A stretch of DNA of 64,000 bases from a virus (Duplodnaviria; Caudoviricetes), in IMG/VR virus record IMGVR_UViG_3300024283_000014, positions 1,885 to 65,884 of that record; one strand, 5' to 3'. The notes below the pieces were generated by a model that was not told the origin of the DNA, made no database searches, and saw nothing but the letters and a program-made list of their open reading frames with translations. This document shows positions 2,873 to 19,722 of this stretch, one piece after another. Position 1 is the first letter of the stretch. Each line of letters begins with the position of its first letter. A program made the position numbers and the translations under genes.

Positions 2873-2943
2873 AGGCGAAGCACAGTTGCAAGAGCTGGAA
2901 AACTACATTACAGCCGAAGATATCCTAAGCGGGAAAGTTGTTA

Positions 2944-4461
2944 ATGGCTAAATCCGATTTTGCTCTTGAACAATTGAAGCGATTTGATAGTTCAGAGCAA
3001 TTGGCTATCCTTGAAGCTCTTGAAGACAAACGTCGCAAAGAGAACTTCATTAAGTATTGGGAACCGCAGGAACAGCAAAAACCTCACTTCAAAGAATTCA
3101 CCAATGATATTAAGATTTTTGGTATCCTTGGTGGAAACCGCAGTGGCAAGACGGAAGAGGGAGTGTTTATAGATGTCGTTTGGGCACTCGGGAAAAAGTA
3201 CTTTGAAGGTGAACCAGTCTACGAATACATCAAAGACCTTCCAATACCAGACCCCCCAAACAATATCTGGATTGTGGGCCTTGACTATTCTCTACTCAAA
3301 AACGTTATTTGGAACGAAAAACTACGCCAAGGACGAAATCACCCCGCCTTTCTCCCCAAAGACCCTGAAGTTATTAAGAAAGTTGTCGATGGGGAATTTC
3401 AGGTGTATTTCTCCAACGGCTCGATTATTACTGGAAAATCAGCAGACGCCGGAAGAGACAAATTCCAAGGCGCCAGTATAGACCTAGTACACATTGATGA
3501 GGAATGTGAAGCAGATGTCTTCGATGAATGCTATCAAAGAACGGCTGATTGCGCAGGAAAGATTCTTTTAACCTTAACACCACTTGCAGACATTGCCTCT
3601 GGAGTTAAGACCCCGTGGGTCTTCAACCTCTATGAGGATATGGTTGCGGGGCAAAAAGACATAAAGTTTGTAAAACTAAATGTTTTGCACAACCCCTATG
3701 TCCCAGAAGTAGAAAAAAGCAAGCTTCTGGATAAATGGGCTGGAAACTTTGAAGAAGCAGCTAGACTCTACGGGGACTTCATACAACGATCAGGACTGGT
3801 ATATCCGCTCTGGAAGCGAGATTTACACCTTATCGACCCTATTAAAATCCCTCGTGAATGGCGTAGGATCGTCTCTATCGACCCCGCTGCTACTGGCACG
3901 ACAGCCGCTATCTGGGCCGCAGTTGAACCCGGAAGCAATAATCTATATCTCTACAGGGAATATTATAACTCTAATGCCATCGTCAGCGATCACGCTAAAA
4001 ACCTCCTTGCATTAAATGGAAGTGATCCAATAGACAATTGGCTACTTGATCCAAAGTGGGCGCAACAACGAAATGCTGAAACACATAAGACAGGGCTACA
4101 ACTTTACAGGGACAACAATATCCCCGTCCGGCCAGCGAACGTTAATTATGAGGATTACGGACTTAATGCTAGCAGGGAGTATATCGCTGCTAATCTTGAT
4201 AAGTCCTCCCGCCACCCGAAAGTTTTCGTGTTTCGTGATCTCAAGAATTTTACCTTCGAGATCGAACACTACGTATGGGACTTTTTTCAACGAGGAGATC
4301 AAAAGGGATTATCAAAGGATAAACCACTCAAACGTAACGACCATTTGATGAATGCCTTCCAGTATCTTTGTTGCATGCAACCCCGAGGCCGCAAATCAGG
4401 AGCCTACATAAGAGATGAAGAAAGTACAAAAAGATATGCAAATCTCAATTCCTACACATAA
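2944..4461 (+). CDS. terL: terminase large subunit
   Basis: Walker A GGNRSGKT, Walker B VHIDEE, RNase H-like IVSIDPA and C-terminal DHLMNA; ATG at 2944 preferred over 2938. Confidence 0.95.
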   Translation: MAKSDFALEQLKRFDSSEQLAILEALEDKRRKENFIKYWEPQEQQKPHFKEFTNDIKIFGILGGNRSGKTEEGVFIDVVWALGKKYFEGEPVYEYIKDLPIPDPPNNIWIVGLDYSLLKNVIWNEKLRQGRNHPAFLPKDPEVIKKVVDGEFQVYFSNGSIITGKSADAGRDKFQGASIDLVHIDEECEADVFDECYQRTADCAGKILLTLTPLADIASGVKTPWVFNLYEDMVAGQKDIKFVKLNVLHNPYVPEVEKSKLLDKWAGNFEEAARLYGDFIQRSGLVYPLWKRDLHLIDPIKIPREWRRIVSIDPAATGTTAAIWAAVEPGSNNLYLYREYYNSNAIVSDHAKNLLALNGSDPIDNWLLDPKWAQQRNAETHKTGLQLYRDNNIPVRPANVNYEDYGLNASREYIAANLDKSSRHPKVFVFRDLKNFTFEIEHYVWDFFQRGDQKGLSKDKPLKRNDHLMNAFQYLCCMQPRGRKSGAYIRDEESTKRYANLNSYT

Positions 4462-4618
4462 TCCTAGTGTTTGTCCTAATTGCGGGCATTGCCCGACTTG
4501 TGGACGACAAGATGCTTTGCCATACAATCCTTGGCGGAATCAACCGTATTGGGTTTATCAACCTACTTATACAGTAGGCGATTTCCCTAACAACAATACA
4601 TACGAAGTTAATTGTTAA
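4415..4618 (+). CDS. small Cys-rich protein (CPNCGHCPTCG)
   Basis: 67 aa with paired CxxC; overlaps the terL end. Confidence 0.55.
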   Translation: MKKVQKDMQISIPTHNPSVCPNCGHCPTCGRQDALPYNPWRNQPYWVYQPTYTVGDFPNNNTYEVNC

Positions 4619-4621
4619 TAT

Positions 4622-4641
4622 CCTCGCAAAGAACGGGGTCA
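4622..4641 (+). repeat. dispersed motif A copy
   Basis: cctcgcaaagaacggggtca, 3 bp after a stop codon. Confidence 0.9.
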
Positions 4642-4658
4642 ACACTCCAGGAGATAAC

Positions 4659-4778
4659 ATGCATTTTCTAGTGGCATTTGGATTAGGTTTCGCAGTAGGT
4701 GGGTCAGCAGTAGGTTATTTTTCATATAACTATGGCAAGAAGGCAGCCGCCGCTTTTGCTGCTCTAAAGAAAGCCTAA
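4659..4778 (+). CDS. 39-aa single-pass membrane protein
   Basis: MHFLVAFGLGFAVGGSAVGYFSYNYGKKAAAAFAALKKA; GGAG RBS; below the track cutoff. Confidence 0.6.
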   Translation: MHFLVAFGLGFAVGGSAVGYFSYNYGKKAAAAFAALKKA

Positions 4779-4957
4779 TGCGCGCTCAAGAAATTCTTAA
4801 CCGAGGAATTCAGAAAACCGAATACAAGGACAAGACTTTCTCTAAAACAGGGAAACCAGATTTTCAACCGGAAGAACCGGAAATTTTAACAATGAACCCG
4901 AAAGGGCCATATTCGAGGCCACGTACGAAAGCCTCCACCAATAATTCGTACACATAG
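4778..4957 (+). CDS. 59-aa hypothetical protein
   Basis: TAATG coupling to the upstream gene; hand translation MRAQEILNRG...NNSYT. Confidence 0.55.
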   Translation: MRAQEILNRGIQKTEYKDKTFSKTGKPDFQPEEPEILTMNPKGPYSRPRTKASTNNSYT

Positions 4958-4980
4958 CAAAAACTGAAAGGACAATATAA

Positions 4981-5358
4981 ATGGCTAATACAGTAAACGC
5001 TACGTGGGCAACTAGTGGCCCCGCATTTACAAATCAGGTTGTAGCTTTCGGAGGCAGAGACGCCGCCGAACTCGCTTATCATGGTGTAGCTAGCTTCACT
5101 GGTGATAACGCAACTGCTACTGTTACTTTGAATTGGATTGATGGAACTCAGACTCCCTTCTTCACACAGGGCAATCCTCCGACTGCTGTTGCTCCGTTTG
5201 CAGTGTTTGTTGGCCCGACCAACACCGCTGCTGCTAACGCAGTAGTTGTGCAGAATGTCAGTTCTATTTCATCCACAGGTTGTGTACTAACTCTTAGTGC
5301 AAATGCCCCTGCAGTTGCTATTAAGATTCCATTCATTGTATTCGCATACGCTTCTTAA
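4981..5358 (+). CDS. beta-rich protein, possible virion decoration protein
   Basis: 125 aa, A/T/V-rich; AGGA RBS. Confidence 0.6.
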   Translation: MANTVNATWATSGPAFTNQVVAFGGRDAAELAYHGVASFTGDNATATVTLNWIDGTQTPFFTQGNPPTAVAPFAVFVGPTNTAAANAVVVQNVSSISSTGCVLTLSANAPAVAIKIPFIVFAYAS

Positions 5359-5603
5359 TGGCGAATATGACTAATACCGGAAACGGAGGCTTAAAACCCC
5401 TCCGTTTCGGAAACATAAGGGGGCTTATGGATATGCATTGCCAAGGCCAACATGAAATTTATGTGGCCGAAGTTCTATATGTAGAGGCAGAGGGCAAACT
5501 AGTAGTAGTTACAGTTTGTCGTCATTGTGACAATGTTCGTTTTCATGAACGCCAAGTTGCACAAGCACATCATAGCGGTGAACTCCTAAAACAAGGAAAA
5601 TAA
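5358..5603 (+). CDS. small His/Cys-containing protein
   Basis: HC...CRHC pattern; TAATG coupling. Confidence 0.65.
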   Translation: MANMTNTGNGGLKPLRFGNIRGLMDMHCQGQHEIYVAEVLYVEAEGKLVVVTVCRHCDNVRFHERQVAQAHHSGELLKQGK

Positions 5604-5604
5604 A

Positions 5605-6126
5605 ATGAGTTATAATGTTAGAGATGATTCAGGGCTTTTTGGCCCGTTAGCTGGTGTAGAACTTCCCAATGGTGCAGGCTCACCAACAATTGTTGCACAT
5701 CAGGTGATTGAACCTGTTAGTTTAGTAGGTGATGCGGCTACTATCATTGCCAGTCACTTTTATACGTTAATGATTTCTCCTCCAAGTGCATCTGCTGCTA
5801 CTGGTATTCTTCCACTAGGAGGCAATTACAAAGTTCTAGGTGTTAGTATTTGGTACCACACAGCAGCTGCTGGTGCAGCTACTCTAGCATTAGAAATTTG
5901 TCCTGCAGGAACTGCTGATGGGTCAGGTAATAACGTATTGAGTGCGGCTAGTTTTGCATTGAATACTGTATTGACTGCTAATACTCCTTCTGCATTAGCT
6001 TTGAATTCCAATGTGAATAACCTGATTATCCCCCCGAATGGTAGAATTAATGCTGTTTTGGGCGCTACCGCAACAACTGGTCTAGTTGATCTTTGTCTCC
6101 AAGTTTACGTCGCAAGGATTTCCTAA
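5605..6126 (+). CDS. beta-rich protein, possible capsid cement/decoration protein
   Basis: 173 aa with amphipathic strand pattern. Confidence 0.6.
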   Translation: MSYNVRDDSGLFGPLAGVELPNGAGSPTIVAHQVIEPVSLVGDAATIIASHFYTLMISPPSASAATGILPLGGNYKVLGVSIWYHTAAAGAATLALEICPAGTADGSGNNVLSAASFALNTVLTANTPSALALNSNVNNLIIPPNGRINAVLGATATTGLVDLCLQVYVARIS

Positions 6127-6521
6127 TGGCAAATAGATTTCCTCTTCAAGCCGGAGATGTTGCGCCGGATTATTCCGACAATCGATTTGATTCAGGAGCT
6201 GATCGACGTGCTCCTGAAGTAGGAGTTGCTCAGTCTAATCCTCAATATTCTCAAGGCGAAAACATGACTCCTGACCAAGATCGACCAGAAGGTCGGCTTT
6301 GGAAAGTCGGTCAAGCAGAACCAGAAAGCCGTCATTCAGCTCCTTTTCCAGTTATTATGATGGATGGAGATAATAATGGTTATCCTGCTGAAGTACATGA
6401 AATAGATATTTATAGTTATGGTGATGCTTACGATCCTACTGCTCCAATGCGAGTTCGATCAGTAGCTCCTCCTGAGAATCATTGGGAGTTGGATTCTGAT
6501 CGAGATGGGCATAGAAACTAA
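6126..6521 (+). CDS. acidic, probably disordered protein
   Basis: Start at TAATG 6126 (MANRFPLQ) preferred over 6093; D/E/P-rich. Confidence 0.7.
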   Translation: MANRFPLQAGDVAPDYSDNRFDSGADRRAPEVGVAQSNPQYSQGENMTPDQDRPEGRLWKVGQAEPESRHSAPFPVIMMDGDNNGYPAEVHEIDIYSYGDAYDPTAPMRVRSVAPPENHWELDSDRDGHRN

Positions 6522-6772
6522 TGCCTGAGAATATTGCAATCACGGCGGCTAAAAACATTGGAAGCAATGTCAAAGCTTCAGTACAAGATTGGACAACTAG
6601 TACTCTTGATACTGATCCTCCAACTATTCCAGTCGTAGGCCAAGAACATGCAATGCAGACTGCTGCTAGTCATAATGATATGCCAACTATTCAAAGTATG
6701 CTTGGTATGACTAGATACAAACCAGCAGTCGGCAGAGCCGATAAACACGAGTCTAATATCTCGAATCAATGA
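6521..6772 (+). CDS. mini-protein with RYxPxxGxAD[KR] motif
   Basis: RYKPAVGRADKHESN; coupled start/stop. Confidence 0.7.
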   Translation: MPENIAITAAKNIGSNVKASVQDWTTSTLDTDPPTIPVVGQEHAMQTAASHNDMPTIQSMLGMTRYKPAVGRADKHESNISNQ

Positions 6773-7026
6773 CTCACAAGCGTTATATACCTGAAACAGG
6801 ACGAGCCGATAAGCACGCATCTAATACAGGAGCACCTGTAGATTTTAGTGGGCCTGTTATTGCTAATCCTATGGGATTGCAACCGAAATTAGATACTGCT
6901 TCCGAAGAATCGACTGTATTAGGTAATGGCGCGAAATTGTCGCACGAAAATTTCAGTGGGCCTTTGAAAGGTACAGTAGGTAATGCCAAACAAATGTTTC
7001 CTGATCGTATTCTGAGAGAACAATAA
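6769..7026 (+). CDS. mini-protein with RYxPxxGxAD[KR] motif
   Basis: RYIPETGRADKHASN; ATGA coupling. Confidence 0.7.
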   Translation: MTHKRYIPETGRADKHASNTGAPVDFSGPVIANPMGLQPKLDTASEESTVLGNGAKLSHENFSGPLKGTVGNAKQMFPDRILREQ

Positions 7027-7241
7027 TGGAAATTCCTTTTAATTTTACAAGTGAACTTGCTGAACCAATCGGAGAAGAAACGCCTCATATTGGTCAACCA
7101 CCTGCTGCTGAAGATTCTGAAGAGTATCTTTGTGGAAATGCAGGCAATGCTCATCCTTATGCGAATCCCGGACGAGATCAGGATCGCAACAGGGCAGATG
7201 AATGTTCTCCGGCTCAGCCTTTCGCAAGGTACGTAAGTTAA
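7026..7241 (+). CDS. acidic mini-protein
   Basis: 71 aa; TAATG coupling. Confidence 0.65.
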   Translation: MEIPFNFTSELAEPIGEETPHIGQPPAAEDSEEYLCGNAGNAHPYANPGRDQDRNRADECSPAQPFARYVS

Positions 7242-7478
7242 ATGTACACAGGTTTGACTCATCCGAACTACGATGAAATGGGAATGGAATCTGGTATTCC
7301 TCAAGGAAGTGGCGGAATTCAAGGTTATGGGAATTCTGGCCCTACTTCTGGTGCTGGTTTAGTTACCACAAGTTCCCAAGTTGGGAATCAGGATTCGGCA
7401 AAAGCCGATATCGGATATTCTCGTTATACACCTAAAGCAGGTTTTGCAGATCGACTTGCTGCCAATGTCCCTTTTTAG
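7242..7478 (+). CDS. Gly/Ser-rich mini-protein with RYxPxxGxAD[KR] motif
   Basis: RYTPKAGFADR. Confidence 0.65.
   Translation: MYTGLTHPNYDEMGMESGIPQGSGGIQGYGNSGPTSGAGLVTTSSQVGNQDSAKADIGYSRYTPKAGFADRLAANVPF
7372..7388. repeat. palindrome B copy (GTTCCCAA-N-TTGGGAAC)
   Basis: gttcccaagttgggaat, 1 mismatch. Confidence 0.7.
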
Positions 7479-7481
7479 TTT

Positions 7482-7691
7482 ATGTGCTATCCTATTGGTA
7501 TTAACTGGATTGGACTTAAAAATAAGTTCGATGCGCTGGAAGAAAGGCGCGAAGGACTTGAATCCAATAGTGGAACATTTTCGGAAGCAGAGTATAACCC
7601 TTGGCCTCTTGACGCTTGCTGCAACAAACCTATTGGTAATCGCGGCTGCTATGTTTTACCAACCATTTCTTTGGATGCTGTTGGGAAGTAA
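7482..7691 (+). CDS. Cys-containing mini-protein
   Basis: 69 aa, abuts both neighbours. Confidence 0.55.
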   Translation: MCYPIGINWIGLKNKFDALEERREGLESNSGTFSEAEYNPWPLDACCNKPIGNRGCYVLPTISLDAVGK

Positions 7692-7726
7692 ATTAACCCT
7701 TGCATCTATTCAATTAAGGAGTCTTT

Positions 7727-7975
7727 ATGTCTAACCTAAGTACCAACCCAAATTTTGCTAATCATAAAACTAGTGGCACTGATACTAGTATTGCTTGCAG
7801 TGTAACAGGAGGCGGTTCTTCTTATTTCGGTTCTCTCGCCCCTGTAGTCACAGCCAATAGTCATCCTGTTGCAACTCGCGCAGATGGCGCTTTGTGGGAT
7901 ACAACCTCCAGTGCCTATGTATCAATTCAAAATACCAGTGTAGGTACTACAACCTGCCCTAAAAACGGCCAGTAA
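7727..7975 (+). CDS. mini-protein with DGxxWDTT motif
   Basis: ANSHPVATRADGALWDTTS; AAGGAG RBS. Confidence 0.75.
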   Translation: MSNLSTNPNFANHKTSGTDTSIACSVTGGGSSYFGSLAPVVTANSHPVATRADGALWDTTSSAYVSIQNTSVGTTTCPKNGQ

Positions 7976-7989
7976 AGGAAAATTAACTT

Positions 7990-8253
7990 ATGGCAAACAG
8001 TGTTCGCCCCGCTCTTACAAATGTTTCAATGTCTAGCTTCGCTCAAAGTGGCGCAGCTACCTCAGGCAATTCCAATCAAGAAATGGTTGGGCTAGTAAAC
8101 AAAGCTGTAACTGTTCAAGGCCCATATAGTGCTAATCAGTCTAGCGCTGCTACAAGTGATGTACTTGGTGTGTGGGCTGATTATGGCGTTTATGATTACA
8201 CAATTTCAGCTCCTGTAGACGGTAATTCTACTAATTTTAAGGACTCAGCCTAA
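7990..8253 (+). CDS. Ser/Ala/Asn-rich mini-protein
   Basis: 87 aa; AAGGA RBS. Confidence 0.7.
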   Translation: MANSVRPALTNVSMSSFAQSGAATSGNSNQEMVGLVNKAVTVQGPYSANQSSAATSDVLGVWADYGVYDYTISAPVDGNSTNFKDSA

Positions 8254-8534
8254 TGAGTAACCGAGCTAATAGCACAGACACACAAGGAACAACTCAGACG
8301 CAAGCCGGGAACGTAACCCCGGCTGCGACTTGGGTCACAACGTTTCCTCGTCCTGCTGGCCAGACTATTCTAGTAAATCGACTTAATGGAGCTATGACCG
8401 CAGCAGGAGCTACTGTTGGTGACAACGTTGAACGAGACTCTGATGGTGGATTTTGGGATACGACTGTAGGTATTAATGTACCTCCTGATTTTACGGGTTA
8501 TGCTCAACCCGGAAATGATATGGTTAGTAACTAA
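8253..8534 (+). CDS. mini-protein with DGxxWDTT motif
   Basis: NVERDSDGGFWDTTVG. Confidence 0.75.
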   Translation: MSNRANSTDTQGTTQTQAGNVTPAATWVTTFPRPAGQTILVNRLNGAMTAAGATVGDNVERDSDGGFWDTTVGINVPPDFTGYAQPGNDMVSN

Positions 8535-8735
8535 ATGATCGGGGTCGGTAAATCGCATTATGCAACACCCAAAGACGGCCCCTTCAAATGTGCTAACTGT
8601 GAATACTTTAAAAATCCAACGTTTTGCGGAAATAGAGTAGTAGTAGATGATGCAGCCCGAGGTACACTTGCCATGAAAGGCGGTTTGGCAATAATCCAAC
8701 CCGAGGGTTGTTGTAATGAATACGAGCCAAAATAA
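8535..8735 (+). CDS. Cys-rich mini-protein (possible Fe-S or Zn binding)
   Basis: CANCEYF...C...GCC pattern reminiscent of HiPIP-like ligand spacing. Confidence 0.6.
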   Translation: MIGVGKSHYATPKDGPFKCANCEYFKNPTFCGNRVVVDDAARGTLAMKGGLAIIQPEGCCNEYEPK

Positions 8736-8995
8736 TGTCAAACAGATTTAATGAAACTAATAATGGCGGCATTTTAACCATCTCTGGTGGTAATATGCCA
8801 GCTGATAACTATACAAATCAATATAAACCTACCAGTCGCGCCGCTGGCCAAGGTGGAGCTGGGGCGGCTGCTGCAATCGTTGTGATCGCTAACAGCCATC
8901 CTGTAGAAGTCGCAGGTGATGGAGGTCTTTGGGACACTACTTCAGGTGTTGCTGTCCAAGACTTTCAAACCAATATCTTATGTATTGGTACTTAA
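8735..8995 (+). CDS. mini-protein with DGxxWDTT motif
   Basis: ANSHPVEVAGDGGLWDTTSG. Confidence 0.75.
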   Translation: MSNRFNETNNGGILTISGGNMPADNYTNQYKPTSRAAGQGGAGAAAAIVVIANSHPVEVAGDGGLWDTTSGVAVQDFQTNILCIGT

Positions 8996-8997
8996 GT

Positions 8998-9086
8998 TTG
9001 CCGGAGCACGACGCTTGTTCCCCCTCTTTCAAGCCAGCACTGCGCCTCCTCCCTGCCTCGCGTAACAGTGACTAAGGCTCCGGTAA
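8998..9086. ncRNA. candidate structured RNA (three-way junction with CU-rich loops)
   Basis: 10-bp closing stem 8998-9007/9077-9086 plus hairpins 9013-9034 and 9038-9070. Confidence 0.5.
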
Positions 9087-9091
9087 CTCTC

Positions 9092-9111
9092 TAACCCCGT
9101 TCTAAGCGAGG
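9092..9111 (-). repeat. dispersed motif A copy
   Basis: taaccccgttctaagcgagg; GCGAGGA end lies at RBS distance from ATG 9125. Confidence 0.9.
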
Positions 9112-9124
9112 AAAGTTAAATACT

Positions 9125-9460
9125 ATGGCAACCCTTTCAGTAGCAGCATTTACCCCGGCTAGTCCTACAGCGGCCACTTTATTCAATGGCACATTGGTAG
9201 CGTCTACTCCGGTTACCATTACACCCGGCTTCAAGACCATCGTGGCGATCAGCCTCGCAGGAGCTACAGATGCTGTAGCTGCGGCAGGCATTCATATCCG
9301 ATTCGGAAGTGCCTTGAAAGCACCTACAGCGGCAGCCACGGATTTCTTCATTCCTCCGGCTACCGTGGCGTATTTTGATCTAGGAAGCGAGTTTGATCGA
9401 TTTAGCATTATAAGTGCAGGAACTCCAAGTTATTTTGTATACGTGATGTCTGTTCGATAA
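9125..9460 (+). CDS. beta-rich hypothetical protein
   Basis: 111 aa, A/T-rich; flanked by inverted motif A copies. Confidence 0.7.
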   Translation: MATLSVAAFTPASPTAATLFNGTLVASTPVTITPGFKTIVAISLAGATDAVAAAGIHIRFGSALKAPTAAATDFFIPPATVAYFDLGSEFDRFSIISAGTPSYFVYVMSVR

Positions 9461-9462
9461 TT

Positions 9463-9482
9463 CCTCGCATAGAACGGGGTCA
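9463..9482 (+). repeat. dispersed motif A copy
   Basis: cctcgcatagaacggggtca, 2 bp after a stop codon. Confidence 0.9.
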
Positions 9483-9493
9483 GGAGCCTTTCT

Positions 9494-9778
9494 TTGGAAT
9501 TCGTAGGAATCACACGATTAAAAAATGGGGAAGAGGTTAATGAGTTTGTTGCAACCTGTCCGACACATAACTATTATTATAAAGGAAAGCCGCCGCTTAC
9601 TTCCGGCTGTCGGGAGTGTTGGACGGCGTTTTTTGTGAGCCAATGGGCACAGAATGGTTGTAAAAAAGAAGATGTAGATAGGCTGGAATCGGCTATTCGT
9701 CATTCTGCCGAACAAGATGACAAAGGCCAATTTGATTTTAAACCAGAACCAATCTCTATAACGTATGCCGACGATTAA
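9494..9778 (+). CDS. Cys/His-containing hypothetical protein
   Basis: CPTH...CREC; TTG start with GGAG RBS. Confidence 0.6.
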   Translation: MEFVGITRLKNGEEVNEFVATCPTHNYYYKGKPPLTSGCRECWTAFFVSQWAQNGCKKEDVDRLESAIRHSAEQDDKGQFDFKPEPISITYADD

Positions 9779-10022
9779 ATATATCCATCCGGCTCCTAGC
9801 CCAACTAGACGTTTTCCTAAAAGCGTCCATATGAGTACAGTTGAGCCAAGTCCTTATCGGCACAAGGGCTGTGGTAAAGTAGCTATTTTATATGCAGATG
9901 GTGTAATTTGGTGCAACGAATGTGGACACAAAGTTTCTGCCGATGATTGTATTAATTTTCATCGTAATCTTAAAGGCAAAGTAGTTGTAAAAGACCCTGT
10001 ATGGTCAGTGATTAAAGTATGA
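9765..10022 (+). CDS. zinc-ribbon-like protein
   Basis: HKGC...CNEC. Confidence 0.6.
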   Translation: MPTIKYIHPAPSPTRRFPKSVHMSTVEPSPYRHKGCGKVAILYADGVIWCNECGHKVSADDCINFHRNLKGKVVVKDPVWSVIKV

Positions 10023-12508
10023 AATGGCTTTTACCAATATTGTTGTTGGTGGGATTAGCGGGAGCACAAACCCACACCTTTCCTGCAACAGACACAGATA
10101 ATGTGTTTACAGGATCAAATACTTTTAATACTGTTGATTTTCAATGGTCTAGTAGACTTGTGTCTACTTTAGGTTCAGCAGCAGCAAGTCCGAGTCGAAC
10201 TTATCGGGTTACTGATGCTTTAAATACTAATGATTGTACTGTAGGCGGGGGAGTTTCTAATGCCATTTGTACTTCAAATGGCACTACATGGAACCCTATC
10301 GGAGGAACAGGAGCTATTTCTTCTGTATTTGGACGAACGGGGGCAGTTGTTGCTGTAAGTGGCGATTATACTTGGGATAAAATCGGAGCTGGTTCAAATC
10401 TATTTCCACAGACAATGGGAACAGCTGGAAGCTTAAGCCCATTGAATATCGGCCAAGTAGCAGGCTCACAAGTATGGATACCTAGTAGCATTCAAGCTCC
10501 GGCATTGGCTTTTTCGACAACGGGCGGTAATATAGCTAGCAACCATAATATTCATGTGGTTGTAACTTATAATTCTAGCCTTGGCGAATCTCTACCATCT
10601 TTAGATGCATTTGTACAAACTTCTGCTTGTGTTAGTAGCCAATGTTCAGTTACTGTAACTGCACCCTCATTACCAAGCGGATATACTAGTTATACAGTTT
10701 ATAGTTGTGATTCTATATCCGCGGCATCTTGTTCTTGGTTGAAGCAAACGGCCAGTCCGAATTGTGTGGCCATCACCGGTAATTGTGTTATTGCTACTGT
10801 GGGTGCTGGGGCTGGAGTTCCGACAACTGGTACCGCTTTCATTCAACCACCAAATGTACAGGCAGGATTCGTCCCTCAAGGTGCAGTTCCGTTCTTGTTT
10901 GGGCCGAAAGCGGATGGTAACAATTATCCATTAGCAGGTATGGATTTATCGAATGGTAATCCTCCATTGCCTACCCCTAATGGAACATTCATGTTTTTTG
11001 ACCGTACGTTCGTCAATGATAGCGGACAAAATATAAGCCAAGGGCCGTGCATTAAAAACACCTTGTTCTCTGTTTGTCATCGCAGCGGAAATGTAACCAC
11101 TGGTACTTCTTCTACCATCCAAGATCAGGCAATGGCTTTCACTACGTTCGATCATGCAACCGGAAGCCCGGCATACGAACAGTTAGGTGGTATTTATGGC
11201 GAGACCCACATCACCAATGTTAATTCGATCTGCAGTCCTGTTGGCGGTTTCGGCGGAGAAGATTGCGCTTTCGGGATTCGTGCGCGAACCAATATCGATG
11301 TTGCAGCGGCTAGTCTTAACAGCGGAAGTGGCGTAGTTGGGCTTCATGGATCAGCTTCTTCGACTGTGACCGGAGGGGGTTTAAACGCATTTTTTACTGG
11401 TGTATTTGGTTCAGCCACCCAAGAGACTAATAACAACCAGAGTTGGGTAGCTTTTTATGCCGGGGTTGCAGGTTATGCGAATGCTGCTCCCGGCAATACT
11501 AATGCGACGGGTGGTGCTTCGTTTGAAGCAGTTCCGCCTCTTACAAAATTTTCAACTTCCGGGGCTATAGGCAATTCCGCTTTGCATGTCGGGGCTAATG
11601 CCAATTGGGACTTCGTAATTAATTCTTTTGCTACTCAGAAAAGTAAATTCCAAGGTACTCTCGAATTAGGAGCCGCTACTGCGCTCAAAACTAATGCTAT
11701 AGCTACAATGGGCGTAACCGGATCACTTGGCGTAACTGGTGCAATCACAGTTAATCAACTTGCCACTTTAAGTGGAGGCAATGTCACCAACGTAGGTGCA
11801 ACTGGCAGTTCAACTTATAGTTATGTGATCTGCGCGGTGGACGGAAATGGCAAGTCTACATGTGGCCCGACACTTACAACTACAACCGGGAACGCCACAC
11901 TGAATAGTTCAAACTTCAATCGTACCCCCAACCTGACCTATGCTCAGATGGATGCGCCGGGTGTTTCTGTCATCAATGTCTATCGCACAGTTTGCTCGAA
12001 TGGTGGATTGAACATTTGTTCTGGTGGCGGCGCAACAGGAATTATTGGAACTCTCACACAGGCCGATCTTGATTCACAAGGTTCTGGTAACCAATTCTTC
12101 TCAGATCAAGGTGCATCAGGCGATGGCACCACCCCACCCGCAAACAATAACACTGGTGGAGTACAGGCTTTTAATTATCTAACTACCACTAATTGCGCTG
12201 CTGTAGGTAGTGCTGCTAGTCCTTCGGTGGCTTCTTGCACTTCAGCTTCAGCAGGTTCGTTCTCTTGCGCAACCAACGCAGTGAATACTTGTACAGTGAA
12301 TACCACTGCAGTCACCACAAATAGTGAAATTTTCGTGACTCAGCGACTCGATACCACCACTGGTACTAGATTAGGTGTAACCTGCAACACGACAGCTAAT
12401 GCGACCATACCGAACGTAAGTGCAGTCGTAGCCGGAACGAGCTTCTCGATTCCGCTCACTCAGCCGGTGACCAACCCACAGTGCTACAGTTATCATATTG
12501 TGAACTAA
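10019..12508 (+). CDS. large beta-rich fibre/spike-like protein with N-terminal signal peptide
   Basis: 829 aa, T/S/G/A/N-rich; N-terminus MKWLLPILLLVGLAGA|QT. Confidence 0.7.
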   Translation: MKWLLPILLLVGLAGAQTHTFPATDTDNVFTGSNTFNTVDFQWSSRLVSTLGSAAASPSRTYRVTDALNTNDCTVGGGVSNAICTSNGTTWNPIGGTGAISSVFGRTGAVVAVSGDYTWDKIGAGSNLFPQTMGTAGSLSPLNIGQVAGSQVWIPSSIQAPALAFSTTGGNIASNHNIHVVVTYNSSLGESLPSLDAFVQTSACVSSQCSVTVTAPSLPSGYTSYTVYSCDSISAASCSWLKQTASPNCVAITGNCVIATVGAGAGVPTTGTAFIQPPNVQAGFVPQGAVPFLFGPKADGNNYPLAGMDLSNGNPPLPTPNGTFMFFDRTFVNDSGQNISQGPCIKNTLFSVCHRSGNVTTGTSSTIQDQAMAFTTFDHATGSPAYEQLGGIYGETHITNVNSICSPVGGFGGEDCAFGIRARTNIDVAAASLNSGSGVVGLHGSASSTVTGGGLNAFFTGVFGSATQETNNNQSWVAFYAGVAGYANAAPGNTNATGGASFEAVPPLTKFSTSGAIGNSALHVGANANWDFVINSFATQKSKFQGTLELGAATALKTNAIATMGVTGSLGVTGAITVNQLATLSGGNVTNVGATGSSTYSYVICAVDGNGKSTCGPTLTTTTGNATLNSSNFNRTPNLTYAQMDAPGVSVINVYRTVCSNGGLNICSGGGATGIIGTLTQADLDSQGSGNQFFSDQGASGDGTTPPANNNTGGVQAFNYLTTTNCAAVGSAASPSVASCTSASAGSFSCATNAVNTCTVNTTAVTTNSEIFVTQRLDTTTGTRLGVTCNTTANATIPNVSAVVAGTSFSIPLTQPVTNPQCYSYHIVN

Positions 12509-12532
12509 GAACCACTATTAGAGGACTTTGAA

Positions 12533-14599
12533 TTGAAATCATTGCTTTCATTATTGCTTCTTTCTAGTTTATGTTTAGGCCAGCAACATATAACAATCAA
12601 AGATCAAGCCAATAATACTTTAGTAAGTGGATTTGTATTCAATGATCCAGTTACACTTGAAGTATCTTTACCTTCAACAATTATTGATTCTGGTTCAGTT
12701 CTTCAATTAACAGCTACTACTTCAAATGCATGGAATTCAGGAGTAGATTGGGTAGCTAGTGCTGGAACAATATCTTCAGATGGTTTGTTTACTGCGCCTA
12801 CAGTTGCAGAAGATGTACCGATTTTTATCACAGCAGTTAGTTTACAAGATTCAAATGTTTCCACTTCTGTTACTCTAACTGTAAAAGCACTTGTTGATGG
12901 CCCGGCTAGTTTGCCTCAAACAACTATGGTTACTTCAATGGCAAGTACGCCAGCTCCCGGTATTGTTACTCAAGTTGCTCCTGGTAACCTACAAACTGCA
13001 TTAAATAATGCTAAATGTGGCGATACTTTAATGCTTCAAGCTGGTGGGACTTTTCCCGGTACAACTTCCTTTCCAGCTAAAGCTTGCGACGATCAACATT
13101 GGATTGTTGTTAGAACTAGTGCTCCTGATTCAAGTCTTCCTTCCGAAGGCTCGCGCATGTTACCTTGCTATGCAGGTGTAGCATCTCTTGCAGGACGCCC
13201 TGCATTTACATGTCCTTCTACCAACAATGTATTGGCTAAATTGATTGCTAGTTCTACCATAGGCCCAATCGTATTTGCGCCCGGAGCCAATCATTACAGA
13301 TTCATAGGATTAGAAATTACTCGTGTAGCTGGTACAAAAACAATCAATTATGAACTAATATCTCTTAGTTCAGGTACAGGCACCAAGATCATTTTTGACC
13401 GAGTATGGCTACATGGCAGTCCACAAGACGATAATAAAACAGGGTTTTTAACCAATGGATTTAATCATGTTGGTTTCATTGACTCTTATGGCAATGATTT
13501 TCATTGCGCTTCGGTAATAGGTGCTTGTACTGATGCCAAGGTTATTGGCGGTGGAACCAGTACAAGTGCAGACGGCGTGTTTAAAATCACAAACAACTTC
13601 CTCGAAGCCTCGGGAGAAAACATCCTGATGGGCGGGGCGAGCGCTACTACCACGCCAGCCGACATCGAAATTCGGCATAATCACTTCTTCAAACCTCTCA
13701 CGTGGAAAGCCGGACAACCGGGATTTATCGGAGCTGTTAATACCGATATTACCAAATGTATAAGTACTCCCGGTATGTGCCCTTTCATTGTTAAGAATCT
13801 ACTTGAGTTAAAAAATGCCCAACGAGTTATCATAGACGGCAATATTTTTGAAAACAGTTGGGGTGGATACACGCAATATGGTTATGCGATCCTTCTGTCT
13901 CCAAAAAATCAAACAGGCACTTGTCCGATTTGTCAAACAACTGATGTAACTATTCGCTATAACACCTTTAGTCACTTAGGCGGTGGAATTTCAGTTGCTC
14001 TTACTTTAGATACTGGATTCACTGGAGGTTTAGCAGGAGCACGTTATTCCCTTCATGATTTAACCTTCGACGATATCAATGCCGCTACTTACAATGGTAA
14101 CGGCGTATTTTTTCAAATTCTGAATAGCTGGTCAGGTTACGCGACACACGATATAACATTAAATCACATAACTGCTTTCCCTGATCCCAAAGGGAAAATC
14201 ATGTCGCTGGCCAATGCATTAACTAATCCTGCAATGTATAATTTCACAGTAGCTAATAGTCTTATTGGTTATGCACAATACCCAGTTTGGTCAGCCAGTG
14301 GTACAACAGATTGCGCTTCCTCGGATGTGCCTTTAACCGTATTTAATACTTGTTTTTTACCTTATCTATTTACCAGCAATGCCATAATTGGTGTGAACAC
14401 AACTAATTATCCGGCAACCAAATGGCCAGCAGGAACCTTGTTTCCAGCCAATAATACAGTCGTGCAATTTATGAATCCTGTTGTAGGAGGCGATTATACC
14501 TTGCTTCCAACTAGCCCTTATAAGAATGCTGGAAGCGATGGTAAAGATTTAGGAGCCAATATCGCTGCTATCCAAAAAGCAATTGCTGGCGCAATATAA
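12533..14599 (+). CDS. signal peptide + Ig-like domain + right-handed beta-helix (pectin-lyase-like) protein
   Basis: Ig-like VDWVASAGTISSDGLFTAP; beta-helix repeats ITNNFLEASGENILMGG, IEIRHNHFFKP, VIIDGNIFEN. Confidence 0.8.
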   Translation: MKSLLSLLLLSSLCLGQQHITIKDQANNTLVSGFVFNDPVTLEVSLPSTIIDSGSVLQLTATTSNAWNSGVDWVASAGTISSDGLFTAPTVAEDVPIFITAVSLQDSNVSTSVTLTVKALVDGPASLPQTTMVTSMASTPAPGIVTQVAPGNLQTALNNAKCGDTLMLQAGGTFPGTTSFPAKACDDQHWIVVRTSAPDSSLPSEGSRMLPCYAGVASLAGRPAFTCPSTNNVLAKLIASSTIGPIVFAPGANHYRFIGLEITRVAGTKTINYELISLSSGTGTKIIFDRVWLHGSPQDDNKTGFLTNGFNHVGFIDSYGNDFHCASVIGACTDAKVIGGGTSTSADGVFKITNNFLEASGENILMGGASATTTPADIEIRHNHFFKPLTWKAGQPGFIGAVNTDITKCISTPGMCPFIVKNLLELKNAQRVIIDGNIFENSWGGYTQYGYAILLSPKNQTGTCPICQTTDVTIRYNTFSHLGGGISVALTLDTGFTGGLAGARYSLHDLTFDDINAATYNGNGVFFQILNSWSGYATHDITLNHITAFPDPKGKIMSLANALTNPAMYNFTVANSLIGYAQYPVWSASGTTDCASSDVPLTVFNTCFLPYLFTSNAIIGVNTTNYPATKWPAGTLFPANNTVVQFMNPVVGGDYTLLPTSPYKNAGSDGKDLGANIAAIQKAIAGAI

Positions 14600-14608
14600 T
14601 TCTCTACA

Positions 14609-15094
14609 ATGTGCAATATCATTCTTCGTGACCCAACAAATCATTTTTGGCAACTCGGCTGCACGGAGCAAGGGTTACTCACTACTACGTTAACTAACAT
14701 TACATTTCCAATCAATGATCCAATGTTGTTGGTATCTAATGTTGCTTGGACATTAACCGCTAATGCTCAAGGTCAAATAGTTTCAACTAAAACTACTCCT
14801 TCTAATATTGCCCAATCATTTTATGTATTAAATTCACCTCTTAATAAAACTTTTAAATTAACAGCTACTCTTAATGGGCTTCTTTCCACTACTTTTGCTC
14901 CAGGCCAGATTGAACCCATTCCTTATCCCTTTGATATAAGCATGTCGCGTTGGCCAGATTCAACACCAGTTATCTGTCCTCGTTGTAGCAATGCTAGCAT
15001 TAAAGTAAGTGCTGATATGAGTTGTTGGTGTTGTGCTTGCAATTCCTTTGTACTTCCTGAAGACACAAATATTATTGTAATCCTAGACGAATAA
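14609..15094 (+). CDS. hypothetical protein with C-terminal zinc ribbon
   Basis: CPRC...CWCCAC. Confidence 0.65.
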   Translation: MCNIILRDPTNHFWQLGCTEQGLLTTTLTNITFPINDPMLLVSNVAWTLTANAQGQIVSTKTTPSNIAQSFYVLNSPLNKTFKLTATLNGLLSTTFAPGQIEPIPYPFDISMSRWPDSTPVICPRCSNASIKVSADMSCWCCACNSFVLPEDTNIIVILDE

Positions 15095-17193
15095 TGGAAT
15101 ATCAAAACCCATCTGTTACTCCTTTCGTAAGTACATACGACGACCCAAACGCCGATGTGACTAACAACGTTATTTCACATTTGCGGCGTATGCGTTACTT
15201 CAGGAAGCAATACGACCAACGTCGAGCCTATTTTTACAAACAATACTTAGGTCAACGGGATCAACGATTTTATCCAGACAACATTACACCTCGCAGCAAT
15301 ACCTTTGTTCCTTATCCTTTTGCTAATGTCGAATCAATTGTATCTCGAATCCTAGATGCTTTCTTCTCATTCGAGGATTGGTTTGAAGCTAAAGGACGAT
15401 CAGCCCAAGATGAACCCGCTGCCGAGAAAATGCAAGTTGTTCTATTGCGGCTTTTAAAACGGTCTGAATTTGTAAAACATTTTGAAGCCCTTGTTCGTAA
15501 TATAGTCATTTACGGTCATGCGGCCATGAAAATTGATTGGGATTGGGGCTATGATACAGTTACCTATTCTCAACCGATTCCGGCAATTGGCAACGATGGG
15601 CAACCCATTGTTCAGCCTACAATTGATCCAAATACTATGCAGCCTATAATGGCTCCTGTTATTTTAGGCTATAGACCAGCTCAAAAACAAGTTCCTCGAA
15701 ATCGCCCTCGTTTTATCCCAATAGATGTTTACGATCTATTGATTGATCCAGATGGCGGAATTGTTGCTCATCTTACTGAACGTACTCTTGGGCAAATGAT
15801 TCGAGAGCAGACCATGAGCTTAAAAGCTTCGATGGAAGACCCCGGCAAAAAGCCTCTTTATCTTCCGCAAGCTTTTGATACCCTCGTTAAACGAGTAACA
15901 GAGAATGTTCGTAAACCAGAAGACCCTATGGCTACGGTCATTCGATTAGCCGAGGTTTGGGATGAGTATTCACAGACTCAATCCATTATAACCTACGGCG
16001 AGGATGCTGAAGCAATCAGTTGGAAAGATTTACGCTCGGCTTACAGAGCTGCAGGTTATTCACCATTTAAACGTAAAGTTTACGCTGGAATTCCGCTTCT
16101 TCTTTATCACGGCGAAAATCCTTTCAATCACAAAAAAGCCCCAATAGTCATGACGAATTTCATTAGCCTCCCTAATGAAATCTTCGGACTCGGAGCCATC
16201 GAAATTATTAGTGATCTAACCGAAGGTCTTACCAAGTTCGTAAACATGATTACGGACAATTGGAACCTCGGCATCAACCATCGTTATGCTTATGACATCA
16301 ACGCAGACTTAGATCACGAATCCCTTAACTCCTTCAACGTTCCGGGCGGCAAGATCGGCGTAGTAGGCGATCCGAGTAAAGTTGTAATGCCTCTGCCGTT
16401 TTTTACTCCTTCCGCCGGTGATTATCAAATCCTTGAAGTTTACAAGATGATGATCGAGAATGCCTCAGGAGTCAGCGACTTCTATAACAAAGGAGTTGGT
16501 GGTTCAGCAGGCAACAAAACTGCCACGGGCATCTCGAATGTCATGCAAGAATCAAACTTCCGATTCAAGATGTTCATTCGTAATCTTGAACTAGAAGTTC
16601 TCCAGCCCACGTTGACCATGTGCGCGAGCATGGTTCAACAATACATTAGCGATCCGATGGAATTTCAAATCACCGGAGAGAACCCCGCAATTAAGAAATG
16701 GGTCACAATGACCCCGGAGGAACTCATTGGTACGCTGGATTTTGATCTCGTTGCAGCGAATTATGCAAGCAATCGCATCATTCGCCAGCGCAACCTCCTT
16801 GCGCTATTTAATTTGGCTGCTCAATCACCGTTCCTTAACCAGTACGAAGCCCTCAAAGAAATCTTTAAGGCCTTTGAAGTAAGGAACACTAACAAATTGT
16901 TGTACACTCCGCCTCAAGTCCAGATGCAGCAAATGCAGCAACAGAAGCAAGAAGTCGAAATGATGATGTTGCAAGCTATGATGGACACAGAAGGCAAAGC
17001 CCGAATCGCTCAATCCAAACCTCAGACTAGCGCAGGCAAAGACGGACGGCCTCGCAAAACTCAGTTTGAAGGCAAGATTCCGGGAGCCGGATTGCTAAGT
17101 CATATCAAAGACTTCGCTCAGTCTATGGGAACTAATGCCCTCGGCCTCGAAGGCATGGGCGAAGCCGGAGCAACAGGTGGAGGAGAAGGTTAG
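15094..17193 (+). CDS. portal protein (podovirus/P22-like)
   Basis: 699 aa; typical pattern incl. EIFGLGAIE, NKTATGISNVMQ and Q/M-rich coiled C-terminus; upstream of scaffold and capsid genes. Confidence 0.85.
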   Translation: MEYQNPSVTPFVSTYDDPNADVTNNVISHLRRMRYFRKQYDQRRAYFYKQYLGQRDQRFYPDNITPRSNTFVPYPFANVESIVSRILDAFFSFEDWFEAKGRSAQDEPAAEKMQVVLLRLLKRSEFVKHFEALVRNIVIYGHAAMKIDWDWGYDTVTYSQPIPAIGNDGQPIVQPTIDPNTMQPIMAPVILGYRPAQKQVPRNRPRFIPIDVYDLLIDPDGGIVAHLTERTLGQMIREQTMSLKASMEDPGKKPLYLPQAFDTLVKRVTENVRKPEDPMATVIRLAEVWDEYSQTQSIITYGEDAEAISWKDLRSAYRAAGYSPFKRKVYAGIPLLLYHGENPFNHKKAPIVMTNFISLPNEIFGLGAIEIISDLTEGLTKFVNMITDNWNLGINHRYAYDINADLDHESLNSFNVPGGKIGVVGDPSKVVMPLPFFTPSAGDYQILEVYKMMIENASGVSDFYNKGVGGSAGNKTATGISNVMQESNFRFKMFIRNLELEVLQPTLTMCASMVQQYISDPMEFQITGENPAIKKWVTMTPEELIGTLDFDLVAANYASNRIIRQRNLLALFNLAAQSPFLNQYEALKEIFKAFEVRNTNKLLYTPPQVQMQQMQQQKQEVEMMMLQAMMDTEGKARIAQSKPQTSAGKDGRPRKTQFEGKIPGAGLLSHIKDFAQSMGTNALGLEGMGEAGATGGGEG

Positions 17194-18702: not shown

Positions 18703-19722
18703 ATGAATTCATTCATTAGATTATTGACGAACGCAGTGTTCGTCCTCTTCGGGTTAGGCCCAGACGTTGTAACCGTCTCTCTCGGGACTGCGGGCAATGC
18801 GGGTTCAACAGCCGCCGAACTTATTACTTATATGTCGGCTCGTCTGCTTGAAGTCGCAGAGTTCAACACCATTTTGGATCAGTTTGGCGACAAGCATCCC
18901 TTGCCGTCTAACTCCTCAAAGACGATTCGTTTCGTCCGTGAAGAGAAACTGACCGTGGCTGCAACTCCCTCGCAGTTGACTGAGGGCATCCCCCCGGATG
19001 CTGTGGGTCTTACCCTTAACCAAATTGAAGCTACGGTAGAGCAGTATGGCTCTGTCGTGAGATTGTCCGACCTTGCGGAAATCACCGCACGGCATAATGT
19101 TATTGAACGGACGATCTATGTTCTAGGTTTGCAGGCGGCTGAAACCTATGATCAGCTTATTTTTAACGTTCTAAATGCCGCAACCAATACGTATTTCCCG
19201 AATAACAGAGCTGGAGACACTTCTCTCGTCGGTTCTGATGTGCCGGGTTATCCGGACTTGGTTGAACTTGATGCTGCGCTTCAGGATCAGGGCGGACGAC
19301 CTTTTGAAGGTGGCGAATATGTTTTCGTTACACCTCCACAGGTCTATGCTGCACTCTTGAAAGACCCAGATTTCAAGGCTTCAAATCAGTTCCGCTCACC
19401 AGAGAAAATCTGGCGCGGTGAAGTTGGAATGCTTGGTGGGTTCCGAGTAATTCGGTCAAACTCTCCGGCATTCGCTGCAACATCCCAAGCTACCGCTGGA
19501 CAGTCTAGCAAAGTGTACACCTCGTTTGCTATCGCTCGTTTTGCGTACCAGATTACGGATTTGCAGAACCTTCGGGTTTACGTGGTTGCACCTGGCGGTC
19601 AGCTTGACCCCTTGCAGCAATCCCGTAAGATCGGCTGGAAGTTTGCCTTTAAATCTGTAATTACGAATCAGAACTGGATTCGGCGTTTGCGCAGTTCAGG
19701 TGCTAATAGCATCACTAACTAA
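18703..19722 (+). CDS. major capsid protein (N4-gp56-like)
   Basis: 339 aa; LTEGIPP, EQYGSVVRLSD, GEVGMLGGFRVIRS, DPLQQSRKIGWK. Confidence 0.85.
   Translation: MNSFIRLLTNAVFVLFGLGPDVVTVSLGTAGNAGSTAAELITYMSARLLEVAEFNTILDQFGDKHPLPSNSSKTIRFVREEKLTVAATPSQLTEGIPPDAVGLTLNQIEATVEQYGSVVRLSDLAEITARHNVIERTIYVLGLQAAETYDQLIFNVLNAATNTYFPNNRAGDTSLVGSDVPGYPDLVELDAALQDQGGRPFEGGEYVFVTPPQVYAALLKDPDFKASNQFRSPEKIWRGEVGMLGGFRVIRSNSPAFAATSQATAGQSSKVYTSFAIARFAYQITDLQNLRVYVVAPGGQLDPLQQSRKIGWKFAFKSVITNQNWIRRLRSSGANSITN

Follow-up and report, generated by a model that had tools for sequence, protein, structure and literature searches.

A small-gene block between terL and portal in an uncultured podovirus-like phage lineage: a candidate module of virion-surface and assembly accessory proteins

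In this article, we discuss a block of small genes that lies between the gene for the large terminase subunit (terL) and the portal gene of an uncultured soil phage. With confidence only a little above even, we read it as a late module that has been inherited vertically and that encodes small accessory proteins of the virion surface and of assembly. The DNA in question, called the window below, is a stretch of 64,000 nucleotides (nt) that makes up nearly all of a 65.9-kb IMG/VR virus record (IMGVR_UViG_3300024283_000014) rated complete by CheckV. In it the block, or array, runs from 4415 to 10022 on the + strand (about 8% of the genome) and consists of 20 abutting open reading frames (ORFs) of 39-173 amino acids (aa), set between terL and the fibre-like genes that precede portal. 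Judged from their sequences, the array ORFs are genuine, selected and syntenic genes, and some 15 related phage contigs from metagenomes (IMG/VR; TerL 56-82% identical) carry the same genes with their order almost unchanged. The original prediction had seen here a late-expressed cassette of minor virion or injected peptides; that description is partly supported, with the genes lying in the structural block and two members, A05 and A03, giving models of virion type, but these two are small folded proteins, not peptides, and nothing indicates injection.

What we propose is that an uncultured lineage of ~66-kb podovirus-like phages carries this block between terL and portal, and that the module would be a mix of five gene sorts and not one peptide cassette. 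The first sort would be compact beta-fold proteins of a virion-exposed type, namely A05 (trimeric jelly roll), A03 (H-type-lectin-like knob) and A17 (beta-sandwich); the second, putative small zinc-binding proteins (A00, A04, A15, A18 and A19); the third, the tandem and apparently ribbon-derived Cys-less proteins A12, A13, A14 and A16; the fourth, presumably disordered proteins, acidic or G/S/T-rich, with a short conserved motif (A02, A06 and A07-A10); and the fifth, two small membrane proteins. Together they would supply the capsid surface and the fibres with accessory parts and with helpers for assembly; as trimers, the folded members would attach to the particle, and the ribbon and motif proteins would serve as adaptors or chaperones for the folded members and for the adjacent fibre genes. 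We infer both the presence of array proteins in the virion and any assembly role; the block does lie on the same strand as the structural genes (portal, capsid protein and SU10-type adaptor), and its tight packing makes co-transcription with coupled translation likely.

The array ORFs and their conservation

Within the array the junction gaps range from -14 to +40 nt, apart from one gap of 129 nt (8996-9124). One-base overlaps of the TAATG type occur at eight junctions and ATGA at two, and an AGGA/GGAG Shine-Dalgarno sequence lies 5-13 nt upstream at about 11 of the 20 starts, most of the others overlapping the preceding stop. Since the large structural genes downstream are packed equally tightly, this coupling is the style of the whole genome and not a peculiarity of the array. 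Stronger evidence of coding comes from selection, where all 14 members that could be compared with orthologues are, by this measure, under purifying selection: the Nei-Gojobori ratio of nonsynonymous to synonymous differences per site (pN/pS) is 0.11-0.53 for these syntenic members, with synonymous sites at or near saturation, and 0.17 for TerL. Furthermore, a codon-frame likelihood trained on 15 large genes of the window gives all 20 array ORFs in-frame scores of 0.17-0.42, including A07, A08 and A15, which are without good orthologues, while off-frame controls average -0.42 (standard deviation 0.17) and exceed zero in only 0.5%. A scan of the array for promoter-like and terminator-like sites shows no enrichment, and searches of its members against Pfam, PHROG and NCBIfam return nothing above cut-off, the sub-threshold matches being Excalibur, LapA, VP4 and zinc-ribbon only. 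The claim that these consecutive, coupled ORFs are real genes is thus borne out by their tiling, the 14 pN/pS values and the codon scores, with one ORF mis-called. The members and their boundaries are as follows.

2938..4461, + strand: terL, left boundary; PHROG 2 terminase large subunit, E 8e-26; 56-82% identity in relatives
4415..4618, + strand: A00, 67 aa, five Cys (CPNCGHCPTCG); 47-nt overlap with the end of terL; codon score 0.19
4659..4778, + strand: A01, 39 aa, single hydrophobic helix; orthologue in L002 64% identical, with a nonsynonymous to synonymous rate ratio (dN/dS) of 0.47; AGGAG Shine-Dalgarno
4778..4957, + strand: A02, 59 aa, basic; 46-61% identity in eight relatives, ratio 0.24-0.39
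4981..5358, + strand: A03, 125 aa, predicted H-type-lectin-like beta-sandwich (fibre-tip knob fold); core member of nearly all relatives
5358..5603, + strand: A04, 81 aa, zinc-ribbon-like C-x3-H...C-x2-C; orthologues in all relatives including L010, L032 and L034, ratio 0.20-0.33
5605..6126, + strand: A05, 173 aa, jelly roll and homotrimer by prediction; AlphaFold2 (AF2) predicted local distance difference test score (pLDDT) 83
6126..6521, + strand: A06, 131 aa, acidic, Pro-rich, conserved WKVGQ and C-terminal DxDxDG; 40-65% identity in relatives, pN/pS 0.30-0.32
6521..6772, + strand: A07, 83 aa, C-terminal RYKPAVGRADK; conserved in the motif region alone (L013, L017, L019); codon score 0.39
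6769..7026, + strand: A08, 85 aa, N-terminal RYIPETGRADK; resembles A07 (E 2.8e-4); motif match in L019 only; codon score 0.40
7026..7241, + strand: A09, 71 aa, acidic; 43-58% identity in six relatives, pN/pS 0.34-0.39
7242..7478, + strand: A10, 78 aa, G/S/T-rich, C-terminal RYTPKAGFADRLAANVPF motif; 35-49% identity, pN/pS 0.52-0.53
7465..7734, + strand: membrane protein, 89 aa; supplants the earlier-called ORF 7482-7691
7727..7975, + strand: A12, 82 aa, Cys-less paralog, apparently ribbon-derived; orthologues 55-68% identical, 41% to A16; family profile E 7e-25
7990..8253, + strand: A13, 87 aa, divergent member of the A12/A14/A16 family; family profile E 7e-5; orthologues 32-74% identical
8253..8534, + strand: A14, 93 aa, paralog of A12 and A16; orthologues 59-82% identical, pN/pS 0.19-0.23
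8535..8735, + strand: A15, 66 aa, five Cys; between A14 and A16; codon score 0.17
8735..8995, + strand: A16, 86 aa, most constrained member, C-terminal ...TNILCIGT invariant; pN/pS 0.11-0.13
9125..9460, + strand: A17, 111 aa, putative beta-sandwich, universal core member; position shifted in this genome
9494..9778, + strand: A18, 94 aa, C-x2-H...C-x2-C-W plus helix, universal core member; pN/pS 0.26-0.31
9765..10022, + strand: A19, 85 aa, predicted four-Cys zinc ribbon with ADG-x2-W-C core; orthologues in L013, L024 and L029 at 38-50%
10019..14599, + strand: two fibre-like proteins, 829 and 688 aa; signal-peptide-like N-termini; G/S/T/N/A 45-55%
14609..15094, + strand: 161-aa protein, three hairpin-like repeats and a C-terminal four-Cys ribbon akin to the A12-A16 core; last gene before portal
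15094..17193, + strand: portal gene, right boundary; PHROG 1216 portal, E 1e-37

The mis-called ORF is the one at 7482-7691, which the original prediction took for a Cys-rich gene and which the comparison with relatives exposes as a shadow frame of the membrane protein gene: identity in relatives is 54-76% for the membrane frame and 27-39% for the earlier-called frame, and pN/pS is 0.29-0.34 for the former and about 2 for the latter (four comparisons). Homologues of the membrane protein are found in every relative, the distant L007, L010 and L011 included, and also in L029. Dual coding at 7465-7734, as suggested by codon scores (0.16 for the 7482-7691 frame and about 0 for the membrane frame), is rejected on the pN/pS of about 2 versus 0.3.

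The description of many members as low-complexity is misleading: G, S, T, N and A do make up 49-60% of nine of them, like their fibre-like neighbours, but A03 and A05 give compact beta models and A16 is conserved over its whole length. Two C-termini are fixed across homologues, that of A02 (...NNSYT) and likewise that of A16, and these are possible docking or processing signals; the terminal DSDRDG segment of A06 gives a weak match to the Excalibur calcium-binding loop (E 0.0013, below cut-off).

In translated searches, all close relatives (L002, L004, L006, L013, L015, L017, L019, L024 and L029; TerL 72-82%) share one gene order for A02-A06, A09, A10, A12-A14, A16 and A18, and a reduced gene set is found in L007, L010, L011, L032 and L034 (TerL 56-72%), with A03, A04, A18 and A17 persisting to 56% TerL identity and A03 not detected in L034. 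From 5' to 3' the layout is a variable terL-side slot (A00 and A01 in the window, other small membrane or lipoprotein-like genes in relatives), the conserved A02-A06, a disordered slot with A07-A10, the membrane protein, the A12/A13/A14/A16 run, A18 with A17, the fibre-like genes and portal. The separation of terL and portal is smallest in L011, at 4.0 kb, and reaches about 11 kb in the window, L019 and L029. A00 has homologues only in L002 and L013 (43-57%), different genes occupying its slot in the other relatives, and A18 is still found at 25-39% identity in L010, L032 and L034, its invariant residues being H25, C39, C42 and W43 (nine orthologues). A15 has no homologue in any relative locus compared and is an insertion unique to the window genome; its site holds a 115-aa ORF with an HNH-like ...LDHINGGG... 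segment in L002 (L002:7058-7405), and A14 directly abuts A16 in L004 and L006, which together mark the A14-A16 junction as an insertion hot spot.

Predicted folds and paralog families

Folds were predicted with AF2 for two members only, A03 and A05, the latter from a 33-sequence alignment. The top Foldseek matches of A05 in the PDB are the KHP40/KHP30 cement proteins, Pam1 capsid chain H and, lower, GP4 capsid chain J (E 2e-4 to 1e-3), with plant-virus coat proteins intermixed, and an exhaustive VIA search gives Pam1 7eel_H at Z 8.4 (root-mean-square deviation (rmsd) 3.1, 112 aligned), followed by KHP40 7dou_4 at 7.9 (3.6, 113), GP4 8h89_J at 7.9 (3.7, 121) and a phage 7-7-1 tail fibre also at 7.9. 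The cement proteins of KHP30/KHP40 (H. pylori), Pam1 (cyanophage) and GP4 (Ralstonia) are therefore the best or tied-best match in both aligners, and A05, by its predicted model, is a similar-sized single jelly roll of the kind (about 110-170 aa) that characterizes phage cement proteins. For KHP40, the title of the PDB entry names the cement protein as a trimer, and A05 is predicted to be a homotrimer, since three copies give an interface score (ipSAE) of 0.95 against 0.00 for the best of three controls, with at least 87% of contacts common to runs and a partner pLDDT of at least 91; the mark used for this score is reached by 20 of 30 proteins solved as one-chain pairs and by 1 of 23 single-chain proteins, a calibration that is rough here (three copies, own alignment). 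What sets A05 apart from these podovirus cement proteins is that it shares no detectable sequence similarity with them, its family profile finding no PDB sequence at E<=10, no PHROG, Pfam or NCBIfam match and, by tblastn, no GenBank phage. Among BFVD viral models it matches uncharacterised phage proteins of small size as well as C-terminal knobs from collagen-like or tailspike proteins, and a fibre-knob role for A05 is equally open because the tail-fibre domain and the collagen-like knobs score similarly.

The model of A03 (AF2 pLDDT 81) suggests a fibre-tip knob. Only six PDB representatives reach Z>=5 with VIA, a count made on the whole model; the re-aligned rows are led by the R1 pyocin fibre tip 6cxb_A at Z 6.4 (rmsd 3.2, 88 aligned), followed by the discoidin I C-domain (5.9), the LKA1 gp49 and Pam1 tailspike C-termini (5.6) and Helix pomatia agglutinin 2ccv_A (5.5; rmsd 3.0, 77 aligned), AP22 gp53 also being listed. 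Foldseek returns the same set of structures at weak E values (0.02-0.2), and the ESM Atlas feature neighbours include viral H_lectin clusters (score 0.92-0.93). Nearly all the top structural matches are thus H-type lectins or the knobs of phage fibres, tailspikes and R-type pyocins (PF09458, PF21882); however, A03 is a stand-alone protein of 125 aa and not the tip of a long fibre, and its Z is only 5.4-6.4. It has 71 homologues, all unnamed, and no Pfam match at E<=0.1, the PF09458 profile included.

The third candidate of this sort, A17, belongs to a family of 272 clusters (50% identity) at E<=1e-3, nearly all of them stand-alone proteins of ~100 aa and without a Pfam or PHROG family; the 44 members scanned gave one ConA-like lectin domain, behind which that member is fused, and one chance-level match. 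Its ESM Atlas neighbours are viral only, tblastn of A17 against GenBank phages finds no match, and two distant proteins of the family give nothing useful. Taken as predictions, the folds of A03, A05 and A17 are typical of proteins exposed on particles.

Several points weigh against a virion-surface role and should be read with it. Array members have no match among PDB sequence families, so the functional statements rest on predicted folds, and profiles of the A03, A05, A17 and A18 families return chance-level rows only against PDB sequences. Fold scores are middling, the Z of 8.4 for A05 comparing with 7-7.9 for generic jelly rolls and that of A03 being at most 6.4. Jelly rolls and lectin-like sandwiches exist outside virions too, and a common fold is no proof of function. 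The trimer prediction for A05 supports but does not prove a trimer and may reflect the model's memory of solved jelly-roll trimers. The two membrane members and the signal-peptide-like fibre neighbours fit envelope-directed, non-virion functions equally well. Finally, A05 lies 12.6 kb away from the capsid gene, while in phage GP4 gp1 is the cement protein and gp2 that of the capsid (PMC9698820).

Both of the internal paralog families that had been proposed were recovered, and they are larger than first described. A12, A14 and A16 share 35-41% pairwise identity, and a hidden Markov model (HMM) made from their orthologues recovers A13, which was not used to build it, from among the 1140 window ORFs (E 7e-5); it also recovers the C-terminal part of the 161-aa protein (E 0.019), a part that in turn matches the single A12-like gene of L011 at E 8e-5. 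A V-x-V-x-A-D-G-x-x-W core flanked by CxxC pairs is found in the L007 relatives, in A19 and in the C-terminus of the 161-aa protein, the Cys positions reading N-S-H-P and D-T-T-S in the A12-A16 family. A19 and the C-terminus of the 161-aa protein are thus probable distant, Cys-bearing relatives of the family, and A12, A13, A14 and A16 appear to derive from a zinc ribbon that has lost its cysteines and with them the metal site, through links to the Cys-bearing forms that are weak or transitive (E 0.019 to 8e-5). The four metal-ligand residues of a zinc ribbon are missing from A12, A13, A14 and A16, and two knuckles (CxxC...CxxC or CxxH...CxxC) are present by sequence in the putative metal-binding proteins A19, A04, A18 and the 161-aa protein (C-terminus); A19 also gives a Pfam zinc-ribbon match below cut-off (E 0.049). 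The 161-aa protein, which has no family match, carries three repeats of ~27 aa with the pattern L-x-D-x3-W-x-L-x5-G-x-L-x-T-T, and its L007 version is 263 aa long with more repeats.

Compared with true zinc ribbons, then, A19, the 161-aa protein C-terminus and the L007 relatives retain four Cys, and A12, A13, A14 and A16 align to the same core but are without ligands, yet A16 is more constrained than TerL (pN 0.09-0.11 versus 0.135). The 52 homologues of A16 are 63-100% identical, and conservation extends over its full length, with 21 invariant positions spread from residue 4 to residue 84 (24 homologues); the constraint on A16 stays high, so the loss of ligands did not relax it. Each of the four paralogs has a separate line of orthologues (51-88% identity), from which it follows that the duplications are old and all copies were kept. 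The second family, A07, A08 and A10, amounts to the short motif [RK]YxPxxGRAD[RK] only, near the C-terminus in A07 and A10 and N-terminal in A08, which is found nowhere else in the window or in the relative loci.

Alternative readings of the block

The disordered motif members (A02, A06 and A07-A10) could instead be internal or ejected cargo, the GRAD motif or the invariant C-termini acting as capsid-targeting signals, possibly as a subset alongside the surface and assembly proteins; we consider this unlikely, if worth keeping in view. In its favor, the motif is confined to array genes, where every occurrence is on the coding strand and most lie 7-28 residues before the C-terminus, and the proteins that carry it are acidic or G/S/T-rich, have no detectable family and sit in the structural gene block. 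Short terminal targeting peptides do occur in T4 internal proteins and in encapsulin cargo. However, PHROG/Pfam-type searches reveal no homology to known ejection or internal proteins, the motif of A08 is N-terminal, and the motif proteins are undetected in the more distant relatives and are therefore not essential to the particle.

A comparably small share of our confidence goes to a late-expressed accessory island whose products would work outside the particle, that is, host-envelope, lysis-timing, superinfection-exclusion or counter-defence genes gathered at a permissive site between terL and portal. The expectation that these two genes usually adjoin proved sound: they overlap in Lyrsu01, a Pseudomonas phage and the closest cultured TerL relative (27% identity), whereas the window has the array plus ~5 kb of fibre-like genes between them, which makes the block a lineage-specific insertion. 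Such an origin would suit an island, as would the variable terL-proximal end, the single junction shared by A15 and the HNH-like ORF of L002, the small membrane proteins, the lipoprotein-like gene in some relatives and the signal-peptide-like fibre neighbours. What argues for a virion module instead is that the core keeps its synteny even at 56% TerL identity, that constraint equals or exceeds that of TerL (A16 pN 0.10 versus 0.135), unlike in fast-turnover accessory islands, and that the modelled folds are typical of virion-surface proteins.

It had also been suggested, more speculatively, that the array proteins are substrates of a ligase cluster at 44.5-58 kb, either as precursors like those of peptides that are made on ribosomes and modified after translation (RiPPs) or as tagging targets. 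The cluster is real, the - strand half of the genome encoding three phiEco32-type COOH-NH2 ligases, a RimK-like ATP-grasp protein, a class II amidotransferase and a sigma-70 region 2 protein, and linked ligases of such families are predicted to make peptide products or to tag proteins (PMC4431377). Among six complete or near-complete genomes of the lineage, which are not independent, five hold COOH-NH2 ligases together with the array, and ligase-bearing genomes are so far the sole source of the extra paralogs and motif proteins; this co-occurrence with the extras carries no weight, given the non-independence of the six and the fact that the ligase bearers are also the closest relatives. The gene content of the relatives speaks against the idea, for in G003 (complete, with terminal repeats; the genome of L011/L021) no COOH-NH2 ligase, ATP-grasp or amidotransferase was found and A02-A06, the membrane protein, one A12-like gene, A18 and A17 are retained, which makes the core array independent of the ligases, and G002 has the enzymes with only A03, A04, the membrane protein, one ribbon gene, A18 and A17. 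In addition, the array (4.4-10 kb, +) is about 35 kb from the ligases and on the opposite strand, and it has no leader-plus-variable-core layout, A16 being conserved end to end and A03 and A05 modelling as whole domains. RiPP precursors normally adjoin their modifying enzymes, and the likeness to a precursor array, which consists in several small paralogous ORFs in a genome with ATP-grasp and COOH-NH2 ligases, ends where adjacency, a co-occurring core and a leader/core division are looked for. The array as ligase substrate is thus very improbable.

The data exclude tagging by the ligases for the conserved core and not for the lineage-specific extras, the disordered motif proteins A07-A10 and the Cys-less paralogs A13, A14 and A16 with their invariant acidic DGDGGLWD core and ...LCIGT end. 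These extras may, as a highly doubtful possibility, be covalently tagged or cross-linked by the phage's own ligases before being built or loaded into the particle; if true, the virus would encode a system for tagging proteins and use it on components of its own virion. A comparison of G003 with G010 for joint loss of ligases and extra paralogs was uninformative, the genomes being only about 70% identical in DNA. The ligase cluster itself appears dispensable in the lineage, none of its searched genes being found in G003.

That the array consists of chance or mis-annotated ORFs, few of them translated, draws on the one shadow frame in 20 (7482-7691), on A15 having no homologue in the loci examined and on A07 and A08 being conserved at the motif alone, but is largely refuted by purifying selection in 14 members, by positive codon scores that include A07, A08 and A15, and by the 52-71 metagenome homologues each of A03, A05 and A16, and we give it virtually no credence.

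Genome setting, rearrangement and meaning

The gene order around the block (terS candidate, terL ... portal, small gene, scaffold-sized gene, capsid gene) is that of P22-, LUZ24- or tf-like podoviruses, and the difference from the standard podovirus junction is that terL and portal are 4-11 kb apart in this lineage. The capsid gene lies at 18703-19722 (+), an endolysin-like gene is likewise on the + strand, and a protein with an SU10-type adaptor domain is encoded at 22931-24133 (+; PF24175, E 5e-9), for which tblastn finds no match among GenBank phages. By TerL, the closest cultured relatives, all very distant, are Pseudomonas phages of the LUZ24 and tf groups (best 27% identity), weak database matches of the portal protein fall among cyanophages and Helicobacter phages, and blastn of the whole block against GenBank phages finds no DNA match. 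The SU10-type adaptor, a phage sigma factor (47250-47768) and the phiEco32-type ligases hint at a distant phiEco32/SU10-like podovirus kinship.

The run of array ORFs leads straight on to the 829-aa gene that starts at 10019, and ~5 kb of fibre-like genes separates the array from portal. The two fibre-like proteins have no match in family searches, and their G/S/T/N/A-rich composition is common to the array and not to TerL or portal. They start with signal-peptide-like segments, e.g., MKWLLPILLLVGLAGAQ, which is unusual for structural proteins of tailed phages; such starts are also seen in large fibre-like proteins of relatives (L004:11182-15027; L007:9202-12504; L029:4089-11279).

Furthermore, the window holds 15 copies (589-61555, at most one mismatch) of a 17-nt motif, CCTCGCNNAGAACGGGG, against none expected, and its occurrence in both orientations suggests a protein-binding site in the DNA more than an RNA signal. 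Three copies touch the block.

4622..4638, + strand: 17-nt motif copy just 3' of A00; same post-terL position in L003, L004 and L006
9095..9111, - strand: inverted 17-nt motif copy upstream of A17
9463..9479, + strand: 17-nt motif copy 2 nt past the A17 stop; the L004 copy is in the same place after its A17

In every relative examined A17 follows A18, beside fibre or portal genes, whereas in the window it precedes A18 and lies between inverted motif copies (9092-9482), an arrangement consistent with a local rearrangement at these copies. The stretch 8996-9124 (129 nt), the sole long intergenic gap in the block, holds a motif copy and a C/T-rich stretch.

None of the array's members carries a name in any database, and what the analysis offers, with no new principle, is to gather 20 genes so far called hypothetical into one defined module whose parts can be tested: A05 as a trimeric cement or knob candidate, A03 as a stand-alone lectin-like knob, A17 as a widespread virus-only family, and a Cys-less family in which A16 is more constrained than the terminase. 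Work on the ligase cluster should seek other substrates. Since this lineage recurs in metagenomic assemblies, the module would be of use for the annotation of soil phage genomes.

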